Shown: positions 6,201 through 12,200 of the stretch, in pieces | Numbering within the stretch: position 1 is the first letter of the stretch | Layout: each line of letters starts with the position of its first letter | DNA from: Candidatus Moanibacter sp. | GTDB lineage: Bacteria > Verrucomicrobiota > Verrucomicrobiia > Opitutales > UBA2987 | Length of the DNA: 14,272 nt | NCBI GenBank assembly: GCA_965215885.1 | Contig: CBDCEW010000011.1 | Coordinates: 1-14,272 of the forward strand | Direction: 5' to 3' | Position numbers: made by a program

Positions 6201-9200
6201 TCCGCTGATTGGCGCTATTGTTCTTATCGTGTTCATGATCCAAGACAGCCAGCAGGATGAAAACGAGTATGGCCCTAATCCGAAGTCGGTTACTGCGTAG
6301 GAGCTGACACCGGCTTTCCGGCAGAGTGGGTTTCCGGTCGGTTGGTTAACGTTTAAAGAATGCTGTAACGGATTTGGTAAGAACCCACCCCCGTCCCCTC
6401 CAAGGAGGGGAACTTAATAAACGAGCTCACCAGTGAACTGATCCGCTTGTGGGAGGGGTTAGTCCGCTTATTTCGCAGTATGAGCGGACTAAAGCGACGG
6501 GGATCACTACAATACCTTGATCCTGCGCAGAGAAACCAGTGACACCAAACCAGCCCCAAAAAACACACTTCCAGCCACAATAAATGCCTGCTGAAGCGAG
6601 TATACATCCGCCGTCCATCCGATGAATGGGCCCACGATTGAAAAGGCGACACGCCCCATCATATTCGCAACCGATAGTACGGTTGCCCGTCTATCTGACG
6701 TCACGAGACGATTCAGGTAGTTCCTGACAACGGGCCCGTTGATTCCCCGCACATAATAGAAGATGAGGAAAATTGGCATGGCCCAGAGAGAGCGAAAGAA
6801 AGCCAGAAGAAGATATCCAATCAGGACGAGGAATATGAGAGAGATAAGGGTGCGTCTTCGACCGAGATATGCTTCCACTCGATAGGCCAACAGAGAGAAG
6901 ATCCCAACTGAGAAATTCAGGATTGCCCACACGATCCCGAAAAAACTGAGTGGGAGTTCGACCATTTTCAAATAGGGCTGAACGAGCCAAACCATGGTCA
7001 AGGTCGAAGCGGAGACAAAAGCCGAATAAAGAATCAGCCATTTTATTTCGCGATTATCGTGCAGCGCATAGCGCACGATCTCAAGTATTCCGGCGAAACT
7101 GCCACGACTGGATTGAAAGCGCTTCCGGCTCGGCTCGGTCAGACTGAGAGCAAGGGGGATCGCGAAAAAGATGACTGCCGCTTCAACATAGATCGGCGTA
7201 CGCAGACTCACCGTCGCAAGAAATCCTCCCAGGATACCCGCGACACCCTCCGAGACATTTCCCACCGACTGCATTCGCCCTTCCATTTTCTGGTAATCGC
7301 CTTCGCGATTCACCTCGAGTAGGGAATCATAGAGAAGCGCCGAATCTGTTCCGGAAATGAAACTGGCGCCCAACCCGAGGATTAACTCAGCAGCCAGAAA
7401 GGTCCAGAAACCGTGGGCGAGTGCATAAGTGACAAATCCGAAAAAGGCCAATGTCGCTCCGACGACCAGCGAATTCCTTCTCCCGATAACATCTGCATAG
7501 TATCCCGACGGCACTTCCAGCACGATCACCGCAATCGAGAAAACGGCCTGTAAAACCATGATGTCCGTTAGGCTGAGACCGTTCTCTTCGAAAAAGAGCA
7601 CAATGATCGGCATAACGAGCAGAAACCAGCGAAGCCCTACGATCGCATAAAGCTTCCAGAAATTGGACTGAATCGACGCTTTCATCACGGATGGGCCAAG
7701 AAAAGGCCGGGATACTGGAAAACGCAAATTGATAGCCCGCTTTTCCTGGCCGGCGAGCTCCGCCGGAGGGCAGAGTGTCAAAATGGACGTTTTGTCGTGA
7801 CACTGTTCTCGGAAATCTGTGAGAAAAGCGGGCTAGCCCGAACATTTCACAAACCATCTGCTGCGACTGCGGATCTCACTGCGCCTCAAAGCCTTCCCTT
7901 GCCCGGCGACCTCAGAGGGTTTCAACACGCTGTCACCCGCCGGACTGCGAAAAGGCCTTGATCCGCAGCAAGCTACGCATTCTCGCTACGATGTGTGTGA
8001 AATGTCCGGGCTAGTCCCGGCGATCCGGGATCGGACTTTATGCCTCTTTCGAAGGAATTATTTGGTTTAATTCCGATCCCGGCCCGCCGGGACTAGAATC
8101 AAGAAAATGAACCTGAGATTTGTGGGAAGGCGTAAGAGTTGTTGCGCAGCGGCTTCCCTATGGGCCATTTTGGCACGATCACCCTACGCGCGATATTGTT
8201 TCATCATCAGATTTGTATTCGAGTAAAGAATGGATATGACAATATGGATCAAATCTCAGGTTCATTTTCTTTCAAGGAATCTGTCGGTCACATCTGGGTC
8301 GGAATGTCGAGCTGTCATCTTGAAACATACACTACGGACGTTTTAGGAACACTTAGTCCGACAGACTCCTAGTGACGACATCAAAATTCAGGATCGCCCT
8401 CCTTTGCGGAGGCCCCTCTCTTGAGCGAGGAATATCTCTCAACTCGGCTCGCTGCGTCTGTGATCACCTACACACCGACACGCTCGAAATCGTCCCGATC
8501 TATTTCGACAGGAGGCTTAGGACTTACGAGATTTCGCGGGGGCAGCTTTATTCAAACACACCATCGGACTTCGATTTCAAGATCGACGCAGCGAAGCGAC
8601 TCAGTCGATCCAGCCTCGAATCGGTGCTGCGGAAAGTCGATCTGGTCTTTCCCTTAATCCACGGAAAGTTTGGCGAAGGCGGCGAAGTTCAGAGCTGGCT
8701 TGAAAGGCTCTCTATCCCATATGTCGGACCCACCTCAACCGCATGTCGTCGTTGTTTCGATAAATACAAGGCCAGGGCGTTTTTGAATTCTCACGGTTAC
8801 CATACCGTCCCAACACTTCTAATTCGGAAAAGCCGGCCGAACTGGAGAGCCGCCGTCGATCGATTCTTCGAAACACAAAAACTGTCACGCGCGATCGTAA
8901 AACCATCACAGGGTGGCTCGAGCATTGCGGTGCATTCCGTTTCGAGCGTGGCGCAAGCCTGCCATAAGATCGAAGAGATATTTTTGCAAAGGATCGACGA
9001 CAGAATCGTCGTGGAACCCTTTTCGCACGGTAGAGAATTTACTGTTATTGTGCTGGAGAACACCCGTTCAAATCCCGTGGCCCTCGTTCCTTGCGAGATC
9101 GAATTGGGAGACCGGGGTGACGCCATATTCGATTATCGCCGAAAGTACCTCCCAACCCGTCAGGTTACCTATCACTGCCCTCCGCAATTCGAAGACGAGG

Positions 9201-12200
9201 TCGTCGAGCGAATTCAACTGGAGGCCGAGAGGCTCTATTCACTCATCGGATTGCGGGACTTCACGCGATTGGATGGTTGGCTTTTGCCCGATGGAAAAAT
9301 CTGGTTTTCCGACATAAACACCATCAGTGGAATGGACCAGAACAGCTTTCTTTTTATTCAGGCTGCCCGCATGGGGATGAGCCACAGGGATGTTCTGCAG
9401 ATCATCGTAAGAAATGCTTGCCGTCGTTTCGGCGCGCAGTTTCCCGATGAGCCGATTTCTCCGGACAAAGGAAAGCTTGAGGTTCAGGTTCTGTTTGGGG
9501 GGAAAACCGCTGAGAGACAGGTCTCGATGATGAGTGGCACAAACGTTTGGCTCAAGCTGCGCCGTTCAGAATTCTACGATCCCAAACCTTTTCTTCTGGA
9601 ATCGGACTCCCGTGTTTGGCAACTACCCTACTCCTATACCCTGAACCATACAGTCGAGGAAGTGCTGGAGATGTGCCGCAATGCTGAATCTGTAGAGGCC
9701 CGTCTCGTGTCCTACCGAAAGCGCTTCCACCGGAAAATGCTGCAAGAGAGAGCTAAATACCGGGGCGACACGGACCGCCCGAAGTCGATGGAACTGGAAA
9801 AATTCATCGAAAGCGCCTCCTTCGTCTTCATCGCACTTCACGGAGGATTTGGAGAAAACGGAGGTTTGCAGAGCCTTCTCGAGTCGAAGGGGGTGCCGTT
9901 CAACGGATCCGGCTCCAAGACATCAAGACTGTGTATGAATAAGCTGGAGACGAGCCGGTCGATATCTCACTTCACGGCGGACGGTATACTCACCGCGAAG
10001 AAAACCTCCGCTCGAATCAGAGATATCGAACGTCTCAACTCACGTGCATTGGATCGATATTGGGACTCTCTCGTTGCCGAGCTTTCTACCGAACGGATCA
10101 TAGTAAAACCGATCGACGACGGCTGCTCTTCCGGCATCGCAGCGCTTCATGATGCCGGCGATCTCAAGCGCTATATTGCTCATGCCGCCGAAATAGAATC
10201 ACACATACCATCCGGAACCCTGACAGGTCAGGAAGAGATCGTCGAAATGCCAAGCGAGCGAATGGATGAGATTCTGTTCGAGGAGTTTATTGAAACGGAC
10301 CGTGTCGCTATTACCGATCAATCTCTTGATTGGGATTCGAAAGGTGGATGGGTAGAAATCACCGTTGGAGTGCTCGAGGACGAGGCCGGCCTTAAATCGC
10401 TCTCGCCCAGCATCACCGTTGTGGAAGGTTCTCTTCTGAGTCTTGAGGAGAAATTCCAGGGAGGTACAGGTGTCAACATCACCCCGCCCCCCACCGCCCG
10501 CGTGCCTCCCGAAACAGTAGAGGCCGTAAAGACCCGCATCGAGAAAGTCGCAACCGCGTTGAAAATCAGGGGCTATGCTCGCATCGATGCGTTCATGCAC
10601 ATCGAAACAGGAGAGATTATCGTTATCGAGGCAAATACTATCCCCGGATTGACACCGTCGACAGTAATTTTCCAGCAGGCTCTCGCGGAAGATCCACCCC
10701 TCTATCCTACCGCATTCCTCGAAAGAATCACGCAACAGGGCATGAAGAGAGCAGCAAAGAGCAAAGAGTGCCCACCCTAAGAGCCTTCGGCGGACTTCGC
10801 ATTGAATCGATCCATTCCGACTGAGTCTGCTCCACCCCACGCCTGTCATTGCGAGGAGGAACGGCGAAGCAATCCACGATTGCGATCTCGCGGAATGGGA
10901 CTGGATTGCCACCCCCGCTCCGCGGGATCGCAATCTTTGTCTTGCAAAAAATCCGGCAATGATCCCATATCCTCCGGATTATGAGTAACGCACCCTTGTC
11001 AAACGAACAGCTGACGGAATTGGCGAAGTACGATACGCCTACAGTTTGCAACGCAATTGAACTATTCGACGTCCGGCCGCGAAACACCGGCTATATGGAC
11101 AGCCGGATCACGGCCTGCTTCCCGGAAATGCCGCCTATGGTCGGCTATGCATCCACCGCCACCTTTCGTTCCGACAACTCTCCGGAAGGTGTTGACGCAT
11201 ACGCGGGAATGGATAGTCAACTCGCTGACTTTGAGGACCTTCCCGGACCGCCTGTGGTTGTTTTCCAGGATCTTGACGATCCTACTGCATCAGCCACGTT
11301 CGGTGAAGTGATGTGCACGGTTTACAAGACCTTTGGCGCCGCCGGCATTATTACCAGTGGGGCGGGACGTGATCTCGACCAGGTTAGAGATTTAGGATTT
11401 CCTGCCTTCACAAACGGAACAATCTGCGCACACGGCTACTGCACGATAATGGATGTTCACGTCTCCCTCCACGTGGGCGGTATTACAATAAACCCCGGCG
11501 ACCTGCTTCATGGTGATTGCAACGGTGTCACTACCATCCCCAAGGAGATTGCTTCTGAAGTGGCGGACGTCTGCAAAGGCTTCTTCGAGGCTGAGGATAT
11601 CGTTCTGAGCTATTTGAAGAGTGGGGATGCAAACCGAACAGGCCTGTCCGAGGCGCGCCAAGGGTGCATGGATGTGATCAGCACAATGGGCGATCGGGTG
11701 AAAAGGTAAATCGCGGTTAGGGAAACTCCTGGAGCAGCAAAGCCGCAACCGGAAAAGAGAGGGGAAAGCGGTTGTCGAGGCGTGCCGGGATACCCCTGAT
11801 TCGAACTTCCCGACTAAATCACTTCGCCACTGTCATCACCGATCGGCTTGGTATCGCCTAACGCCTTTCTGATCTGATCGATCTCTTCAGCGGTTCGCTG
11901 TTCGAAGGCAGTCACATCGCTATTATTGACAATTAAATTCGCCCCCGCCTCCGTCCAGGCCACTTGGGCATCGACACCGAACCACCAATGGATTCCGGCG
12001 CCGATGCCATGAGCGCGTGCCTTCTGAAAGATCTCTCTCACGGCCGCATCGAAATCTGCATGACCGTATTGTTCGGGAATTCCCAAGCTGATGGAGAGAT
12101 CGTGAGGTCCGATAAGCACCCCATCTAACCCTTCAACAGAAACAATCTCGTCAAGCGACTTCATGGCGGGTCTACTCTCGATATTAGCGATCAACACCAA

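Follow-up and report, generated by a model that had tools for sequence, protein, structure and literature searches.

The window, meaning the whole stretch of 14,272 nt that was analysed, carries on its forward strand a gene encoding an 802-aa D-Ala-D-Ala ligase (hereafter Ddl) in which two Ddl units follow one another in a single chain. The gene and the parts of its product are as follows.

8372..10780, + strand: tandem D-Ala-D-Ala ligase gene (802-aa ORF, GTG start; the sole Ddl of the assembly)
8384..9436, + strand: N (A-type) Ddl unit, about aa 5-355 (residues mapped onto E. coli DdlB)
9437..9469, + strand: short inter-unit linker, about aa 356-366 (alignment; model pLDDT drops at 361-370)
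9470..10756, + strand: C (B-type) Ddl unit, about aa 367-795 (residues mapped onto E. coli DdlB)
9311..9313, + strand: Asp314, diagnostic change of the N unit (Asp in 586/588 tandems; Glu in 36/36 single Ddls)
10124..10126, + strand: Cys585, diagnostic change of the C unit (584/588 tandems)
10454..10456, + strand: Phe695, omega-loop Tyr-to-Phe change of the C unit (586/588 tandems)

A Pfam scan of the ORF returned two stretches of Dala_Dala_lig_N and two of Dala_Dala_lig_C, the PF01820 and PF07478 domains and the ATP-grasp fold being present twice over, and the two halves are 26% identical over 305 columns (E 6e-15), which bears out the preliminary description of two Ddl units in one chain. 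The protein scores 331.7 bits against NCBIfam TIGR01205 (cut-off 245.65), a figure that sums both units, and was modelled by AlphaFold2 with a pLDDT of 91.5 and a pTM of 0.91; a second whole tandem reached a pTM of 0.86. An assembly artefact is ruled out, since the family has 11 member sequences and its full-length relatives run to thousands, and recent transfer by a base composition (GC 52.5%, GC3 58.4%) similar to that of the dcw genes. The tandem had also been described as the only Ddl of this genome, which encodes Mur ligases and alanine-racemase-family genes, and so it appears: the tandem locus was the only match in a tblastn search of the assembly for a second ddl, and of 70 candidates scored across the whole assembly only two matches exceeded the PF01820 cut-off, both inside the tandem ORF. 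Elsewhere PF07478 has two more matches over cut-off, in a 931-aa ORF (E 9e-8) and a 473-aa ORF (E 2e-7), which have no PF01820 match and are probably other ATP-grasp enzymes. With completeness of the assembly at 90.3%, another ddl could in principle lie elsewhere in the genome.

The reported absence of ddl from the dcw cluster was likewise upheld, since on contig C51 no ddl intervenes between the murC-containing 779-aa ORF, the ORF that follows it and ftsA/ftsZ. Of the 23 single-domain ddl loci of the same order, 21 have homologues of those dcw genes no more than 1.5 kb away, and gene order in these relatives suggests that the tandem, probably the housekeeping D-Ala-D-Ala ligase of this bacterium, has replaced the single-unit ddl of the dcw cluster. 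No conserved neighbourhood of the tandems was found, the genes beside most loci being variable; two tandem genes lie after murB and two of the Cytophagales type before a PASTA gene.

Relatives of the tandem comprise 2053 clusters at E<=1e-20 (8000 candidates), the best 120 of which are all 781-855 aa in length. In its own lineage the form occurs in 3 of 8 other genomes of the family and 7 of 81 genomes of the order, its own genome counted. The earlier view, which assigned it otherwise to uncultured bacteria and chiefly to Patescibacteria, is not supported in that form, being too narrow. Patescibacteria do lead the best-matching GTDB loci (46 of 75 by title, with no cyanobacterial titles), but only 6 of 151 sampled Patescibacteria genomes carry the tandem, against 21 of 124 in the phylum whose centre genome is titled Bdellovibrionota (these counts per phylum took in no cyanobacterial, chlamydial or Bacteroidota genomes). 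Furthermore, a sister subfamily of about 900 aa is found in the named Cytophagales Cytophaga hutchinsonii, Rhodocytophaga, Adhaeribacter and Catalinimonas. No tandem was found in the plasmid and phage collections, where the matches listed (40 of 129 and 15 of 20 records) are single ddl genes, 22-30% identical, nor among 37 PDB sequence matches.

Canonical Ddls (E. coli DdlA/DdlB; TIGR01205, PF01820 + PF07478) share the fold and the ATP-grasp catalytic core with both units, but are single units of 300-390 aa that form homodimers. Plant and green-algal DDL (Physcomitrium PpDDL, Arabidopsis At3g08840) is among the closest systems known, and the doubling of the plant enzyme has already been published (PMC9954125). 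These proteins also contain two units and are colinear with the 802-aa protein over their full length at 43-47% identity, with the same diagnostic residues in 73/73 plant rows and 24-25/25 algal rows, whereas the 802-aa protein lacks the N-terminal targeting extension, has shorter inserts and belongs to a different bacterial sub-branch. The Cytophagales enzymes (897 aa in C. hutchinsonii), which probably correspond to what Yue et al. 2012 called 'CFB', are tandems with Asp270, Cys150, Phe216 and Thr281 in 176/176, but are only 26-31% identical to the halves of the 802-aa protein, carry an additional N-unit insert and form a separate sister clade. The Phe-type D-Ala-D-Lac ligases found in Leuconostoc and lactobacilli (LmDdl2) resemble the C unit alone in having Phe at the omega-loop Tyr216 position; they are single units that keep Ser150 and Ser281 and lie among ordinary Ddls in trees. 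The 802-aa protein does not group with Phe-type or VanA-type D-Ala-D-Lac ligases, and its score of 162.6 is far short of the D-Ala-D-Lac NCBIfam cut-off of 550; it falls below all Van cut-offs as well. The chlamydial MurC-Ddl fusion (PRK14573) is of similar length (about 809 aa), but its N part is MurC and it has one Ddl unit and no second; against this model the 802-aa protein scores 187 bits (cut-off 1015).

Active-site residues were compared, in E. coli DdlB numbering, between 588 distinct tandems and 36 single Ddls, with partial proteins and six proteins caught by the half-cutting filter left out; a plasmid-borne ATP-grasp protein of Actinomyces that has Asp at 270 (a long branch, not annotated as Ddl) was dropped from the singles. 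In the tandems, counted as related sequences and not as independent events, the Mg ligand Glu270 is replaced by Asp in the N unit (586/588), and in the C unit Ser150 is replaced by Cys (584/588), Tyr216 by Phe (586/588) and Ser281 by Thr (587/588). Among the single Ddls, Glu270, Ser150 and Ser281 are each present in 36/36 and Tyr216 in 35/36. The N unit of the 802-aa protein retains E18, H97, K131, K177, S183, K258, Y259, R299, D301, N316 and G320, with Asp314 where DdlB has the Mg-binding Glu270, while the C unit retains E381, H490, K524, K579, K694, R737, D739, E753, N755 and G759, with Cys585 (Ser150), Phe695 (Tyr216) and Thr764 (Ser281); the diagnostic set of the plant-type tandem (D314; C585, F695, T764) is complete. 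The metal and oxyanion ligands Arg255, Asp257, Glu270, Asn272 and Gly276 are thus all in place in the C unit, the N unit having Asp for Glu270, and the Glu15-Ser150-Tyr216 triad of dipeptide ligases is intact in the N unit and reads Glu-Cys-Phe in the C unit, so that neither unit carries the full canonical set. The Glu-to-Asp change is a mild one, and every other catalytic residue of the fused N unit is invariant among the 588 tandems. No DdlB mutant data turned up in the literature searched. Columns conserved to at least 98% number 30 of 358 in the N unit against 36 of 430 in the C unit, and mean identities are 42 and 40%; judged by its sequence, the fused N unit is not decaying, its conservation equalling that of the C unit. 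Such fixed, opposite changes in the two halves were not found in the print searched (Hirano 2016 and Sato & Takano 2017 lying outside it).

Six unfused pairs of neighbouring genes, A then B, were detected in five genomes of two phyla, where they are the sole PF01820 genes found; a pair of this kind as the sole Ddl was likewise not found in the same body of print. The pairs adjoin alr, murA-like and Mur-ligase genes, and the stop of A and the start of B abut in two genomes. The B proteins carry the C-unit signature Cys150, Phe216 and Thr281 in 6/6, and the A proteins lack His63, Asn272 and Gly276 in 6/6, residues termed key for catalysis (PMC6899670). With A so altered, catalysis in these genomes must fall to B. 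The lesions in A differ from that in the fused N unit. A complex of A and B was predicted with a score of 0.89 (best control 0.00), the runs sharing at least 87% of contacts and the partner having a pLDDT of 86. Of solved complexes 116 of 157 attain the pass mark, and of mismatches 2 of 215; the job was run without a homodimer control, and the pass may stem from resemblance to solved Ddl homodimers.

Phylogenetic analysis showed each unit of the 802-aa protein to be the orthologue of the corresponding half of plant DDL, with support of 100/99 for both the main N clade and the main C clade. Identity to the halves of Selaginella DDL agrees (for the N unit 47% to N and 23% to C; for the C unit 42% to C and 23% to N), and with named chlorophyte proteins now counted among the members, the half-by-half match and the membership of the chloroplast DDL family proposed earlier are both substantiated. 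In a careful tree of 61 rows from which the nine diagnostic columns had been removed, pairs and tandems grouped together apart from 19 single Ddls (99/97), with B as the sister of all C units, Cytophagales included (97/92). The N-type groups failed to form one clade, so more than one fusion is possible. In a concatenated tree rooted on the pairs and Cytophagales, with 29 long-branch or redundant tandems left out, an outgroup without cyanobacteria and chlamydiae and no glaucophyte rows, green algae and plants nest inside the bacterial family. The 802-aa protein sits in a bacterial sub-branch other than that of the green clade and is an ordinary family member, not the plants' nearest relative. 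In AU tests of the donor (5000 replicates, below the number advised by the program), a clade of the green lineage with Cytophagales was rejected (p 1e-7), placement of the green lineage outside all main-family bacteria was borderline (p 0.0495) and its union with the Patescibacteria-rich clade of the 802-aa protein was not rejected (p 0.35). Rejection of a constraint that joined it to six named Patescibacteria carries little meaning, the test being unfair to a set that is not itself monophyletic. The non-cyanobacterial origin of plant DDL, near Protochlamydia/Bacteroidota, is already in print, its bacterial sister group (Protochlamydia, CFB) having been named in 2008 (Moustafa) and 2012 (Yue et al.), and it is on that print that this origin rests.

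The fixed, opposite changes and the existence of the units as separate neighbouring genes suggest a division of labour between the halves. It is proposed, with the case standing at about even, that these enzymes are heterodimer-type Ddls in which the C/B unit is catalytic and the N/A unit is a specialised partner. An old duplication would have given rise to A-type and B-type units working as an unequal pair in place of the usual homodimer; the two would persist as adjoining genes in a few bacteria and, if the direction was from pair to fusion, as a fused chain in Cytophagales, in many bacteria of patchy distribution, and in green algae and plants, the green lineage having presumably acquired from a bacterium a gene already fused and specialised. 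The units would pack together as they do in an ordinary Ddl dimer, with the C/B unit, complete in its metal and oxyanion ligands, as the probable main site (D-Ala + D-Ala + ATP to D-Ala-D-Ala) and its Cys150/Phe216/Thr281 pocket standing in for the canonical Ser/Tyr/Ser, while the N/A unit may still bind ATP, be slower or inactive, and act as an obligatory structural or regulatory partner. Arabidopsis lines keeping only the C-half transcript have no plastid defect, which speaks for catalysis by the C unit, while a C-half product that is cytosolic and of unproven activity speaks against it (PMC9954125). That the bacterial tandem makes D-Ala-D-Ala is indicated indirectly, by its place as the single Ddl in a genome with Mur-ligase and alanine-racemase-family genes and, for the moss enzyme, by genetics and mass spectrometry. 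Against this heterodimer stand the conserved N unit with its canonical Ser150/Tyr216 and the differing lesions of pair A and fused N, and Phe216, a mark of D-Ala-D-Lac ligases elsewhere, sits awkwardly with a plain D-Ala-D-Ala role of the C unit.

That both fused units are active, the N unit (Ser150/Tyr216) making D-Ala-D-Ala and the C unit (Cys150/Phe216) D-Ala-D-lactate or another D-Ala-D-X, is doubtful. In E. coli, the mutants S150A and Y216F acquire depsipeptide activity, and conservation of the whole N unit except Asp270 fits two active sites. In lactic acid bacteria, Phe versus Tyr decides between depsipeptide and dipeptide activity (PMC5996685), and the Phe column maps correctly onto L. 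curvatus Ddl, which has Phe there. In the unfused pairs, however, the three residues missing from A would leave B as the sole source of product; the moss makes an Ala-Ala pentapeptide, its precursor end having been identified as Ala-Ala with D-Lac unmentioned (PMC9434261); and no conserved D-lactate dehydrogenase or VanX was found beside the tandems in the 56 of 129 neighbouring ORFs listed (28 loci). It is unlikely that the chain is a covalent dimer whose two units produce D-Ala-D-Ala equally fast or nearly so, perhaps in alternation, with the differences being frozen compensated changes and no labour divided: dimers are a recurrent Ddl arrangement (PMC6899670) and both units keep the ATP-grasp core, but the same unusual residues fixed from Cytophagales to angiosperms, and the catalytic losses of pair A, would be left unexplained. 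It is also improbable that the pairs are a late split of the fused gene, or an unrelated duplication converged on Cys/Phe/Thr, and so uninformative on the origin of the tandem; they occur in only five genomes, the A proteins fall apart from the N units in the trees, support for B with C falls to 85 in one quick tree and some assemblies have other family members in broken or split form (L076, L101, G035), but B lies outside all fused C units with the diagnostic columns removed and the A-then-B order parallels N-then-C in 6/6 pairs.

Under the heterodimer proposal, the much-studied drug-target family Ddl would gain a new mode, that of an unequal dimer whose pocket is Cys/Phe/Thr. The results bear on the reason for the doubling of plant DDL, on which of its halves is the working one and on its retention by angiosperms, the activity of the halves being unproven (PMC9954125), and they would narrow the origin of this chloroplast wall enzyme, in that duplication, specialisation and fusion in bacteria preceded transfer to the green lineage, with Cytophagales a sister branch and not the donor. 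A further, speculative and rather unlikely proposal is that plant DDL derives from an unrecognised heterodimeric class with units of different chemistry, the C/B unit taking as its second substrate not D-Ala but D-lactate or some other D-compound. An alternative stem-peptide end or free D-Ala-D-X could then be made in chloroplasts, in Cytophagales and in many bacteria of candidate phyla, and this would account for the retention of DDL, invariant at both sites, in flowering plants, even in those that lack MurF. The asymmetry and the naturally split A and B genes provide experimental handles in the form of small bacterial proteins, exact residues and a culturable carrier, Cytophaga hutchinsonii.

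The ligase gene of the window and its neighbours are as follows.

8372-10780, + strand: tandem Ddl ORF, 802 aa
958-7781 and 10981-12647: GH20 hexosaminidase, PNPOx-like, Zn-dehydrogenase, DUF805, MFS, RraA-like and HpcH aldolase genes, none linked to cell-wall synthesis by domain search

The domain search assigned two Dala_Dala_lig_N and two Dala_Dala_lig_C stretches to the 802-aa product, the halves of which (N unit and C unit) are 26% identical, bearing out the layout of two Ddl domain pairs in one chain given in the preliminary description. No other Ddl locus was found by tblastn or PF01820 in the 6.36-Mb, 90.3%-complete assembly, and in the dcw cluster on contig C51 the interval from the murC-containing ORF to the ORFs preceding ftsA lacks a ddl; the earlier claims of a sole Ddl located away from that cluster thus stand. 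Among single-unit ddl loci of the same order, 21 of 23 adjoin homologues of those dcw genes. The tandem Ddl is a real feature, and the GC and GC3 of its gene are like those of host genes. AlphaFold2 modelled the window's protein with a pLDDT of 91.5 and pTM of 0.91; a predicted model of the Selaginella tandem protein (pTM 0.86) gave Ddl structures as Foldseek matches, and all 37 PDB sequence matches to the tandem Ddl are single units.

The 779-aa ORF of the ddl-less cluster (G000:C51:13104-15440, in the source assembly), with MurC within its first 440 aa, is probably a MurC-MurB fusion. The gap upstream of the ligase gene is occupied by two small non-coding repeats, at 7830-8015 (149 copies on 65 contigs) and 8011-8372 (15 copies, with an internal inverted repeat), the latter terminating at the ligase GTG start. 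Small repeats also lie at 4440-4570 and 4640-4760 (23-24 genome copies each), and positions 1-320 are the end of an insertion element with 131 near-full-length copies on 66 contigs. At 13438-14272 a secreted-looking ORF without Pfam match precedes a frame of collagen-like Gly-X-Y repeats that runs past the contig end; a 92% identical copy of 13361-13951 is present on contig C77.

Active-site residues were compared, in E. coli DdlB numbering, across 588 distinct full-length tandems: 314 bacterial members of the main, plant-type family that includes the window's protein, 73 plant, 25 algal and 176 of a sister, Cytophagales-type subfamily. The N unit retains Glu15, His63, Lys97, Ser150, Lys215, Tyr216, Arg255 and Asn272 in all 588, and Glu270 is replaced by Asp in 586. 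In the C unit Glu15, His63, Lys97, Lys144, Lys215, Arg255, Asp257, Glu270 and Asn272 are invariant (588/588), with Ser150 replaced by Cys in 584, Tyr216 by Phe in 586 and Ser281 by Thr in 587. Single Ddls (n = 36) have Glu270, Ser150 and Ser281 without exception (36/36 each) and Tyr216 in 35/36; the sole Phe216 is that of L. curvatus, which validates this column because the species is listed as Phe-type and vancomycin resistant (PMC5996685). In PMC6899670 the counterpart of Glu270 binds Mg and phosphate and is conserved in 98-100% of Ddls, and the His, Arg, Asn and Gly counterparts are described as key catalytic residues; we read the numbering of that paper as that of E. coli shifted by a small offset. 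Overall conservation of the N and C units is equal, which rules out the N unit as a relic.

Unfused, adjacent single-unit genes, A (resembling the N unit in Ser150/Tyr216) followed by B (with the C-unit signature), occur in three Patescibacteria-phylum genomes (G089, G117, G215) and in two of the phylum of genome G082 (G663, and G675 with two copies). PF01820 matches in these five genomes are confined to the A and B genes, near which lie alanine racemase, a MurA/EPSP-family gene and Mur ligases. All six A proteins keep Ser150 and Tyr216 and carry His63 to Leu, Asn272 to His and Gly276 to Ile substitutions; all six B proteins have Cys150, Phe216 and Thr281 with metal ligands intact. From these pairs we argue that a B-type site may suffice. 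In a careful tree with nine diagnostic columns removed, pairs and tandems formed one group against 19 single Ddls (99/97); quick trees concur on the family (97-99) and gave B plus C support of 98 and 85. That the pairs are late splits or convergent is a separate question and seems improbable, given B as sister to all C units in the careful tree (97/92), where the N-type groups form an unstarred grade. Complex prediction for A+B scored 0.89, with a symmetric helical interface, versus 0.00 for the best of three controls, a set without a homodimer; likeness to solved Ddl homodimers makes such a pass likely.

A peptide deformylase gene lies between A and B in two Patescibacteria-phylum genomes (L121:5443-5979, L122:4137-4682). 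At loci L076, L101 and L012 (G035) the tandem gene is divided over two frames, with the break close to the linker or beyond it, representing either real splits or assembly errors.

It is proposed, at roughly an even chance, that the window's protein is a fused, unequal Ddl dimer in which catalysis would take place mainly in the C/B unit, with the N/A unit as a partner that would bind ATP. Arabidopsis T-DNA lines in which the C-half transcript remains show no defect (PMC9954125), agreeing weakly with catalysis by the C/B unit; the same source calls the putative activity of half or whole plant DDL unproven. Against this reading, the fused N unit retains the canonical substrate triad, the Glu to Asp change being its sole difference. 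Two products from the two sites, and two equal sites, are both unlikely alternatives to the unequal dimer.

A GTDB scan with a plant-led alignment gave at least 813 matching stretches, the best 75 loci being, by title, Patescibacteria (46), Proteobacteria (10), Opitutales/Verrucomicrobia (8), Bdellovibrionota (6), Chloroflexota (2) and other (3). Per-genome counts, which include each centre genome, itself picked for having the tandem, and come from samples spread evenly over groups and not weighted by abundance, gave carriers in 6 of 151 Patescibacteria (one partial), 21 of 124 genomes from the phylum to which a Bdellovibrionota-titled genome belongs (three of the tandems truncated at contig ends), 3 of 301 Pseudomonadota, 1 of 251 Chloroflexota, and 1 of 201, 7 of 81 and 4 of 9 genomes of the window's own phylum, order and family. 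Own-order tandems sit at three places in the tree, pointing to repeated gain. In all five titled genomes checked, the tandem is the only PF01820 gene. The second subfamily (∼900 aa), reached through a short motif, is found in Cytophaga hutchinsonii, Rhodocytophaga rosea, Xanthocytophaga flava, Catalinimonas alkaloidigena and two Adhaeribacter species; its search returned 4811 of 8000 candidates at E 1e-50, a set that may include members of the main family. Tandem-length ESM Atlas clusters are most commonly Pseudomonadota or Bacteroidota. These clusters and the named species indicate that the family extends beyond uncultured bacteria, and the host range first described (uncultured, mostly Patescibacteria) does not hold as worded: few Patescibacteria genomes carry the tandem although they dominate the best loci.

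About 20 clusters (within P0123-P0162) have an N-terminal HigA-like HTH fused to the tandem, and C-terminal fusions comprise an aminotransferase (P0123, P0125) and a GNAT domain (P0160). A same-family genome has an extra C-unit-only stretch (G1206:C2:1079262-1080122; query 509-795, 54%) adjoining an intact tandem.

The doubling of DDL and its non-cyanobacterial origin are already known. Arabidopsis and moss DDL have been described as a fusion of two putative DDL enzymes found throughout the plant lineage (PMC9954125); moss DDL was grouped with Protochlamydia and CFB bacteria (PMC3493653) and listed as chlamydial with a bootstrap of 75 (PMC2376095), and FCB bacteria were named as closest in a study reporting an Ala-Ala pentapeptide in moss (PMC9434261). 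Bacterial tandems are not mentioned in the available portions of PMC6946739, PMC12681378, PMC6704402, PMC4815162 and PMC10784329, and literature searches, which most subscription papers fell outside, found no paper treating tandem Ddl in bacteria, halves that differ or split gene pairs. Within the literature searched, the fixed N/C asymmetry and the natural split pairs appear to be new, and they render the open plant question testable.

Land-plant proteins were matched at 39-44% in a search restricted to proteins >867 aa, and the halves of the window's protein show 42-47% identity to their plant counterparts and ∼22% to the opposite plant half, upholding the original assignment to the plant DDL family. 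Long tandem members occur in the named chlorophytes Myrmecia bisecta, Tetraselmis astigmatica and Ostreobium quekettii; the remaining algal labels derive from tree position alone. Green algal and plant sequences form one clade (support 1.0 with 83 rows in one tree, 99 with 11 rows in another), which lies inside the bacterial family when the root is placed on Cytophagales plus unfused pairs; this nesting indicates that the green lineage received the gene from bacteria. The window's protein falls in a different clade, with Patescibacteria, Bdellovibrionota, Chloroflexota and Opitutales (support 99). AU tests rejected a group of green and Cytophagales sequences, barely rejected a green lineage outside the bacteria and did not reject green with the window's clade. 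Chlorophyte DDLs P0253, P0257, P0348 and P0352 are 1560-1880 aa in length with long acidic inserts, and one is annotated with a SAP domain.
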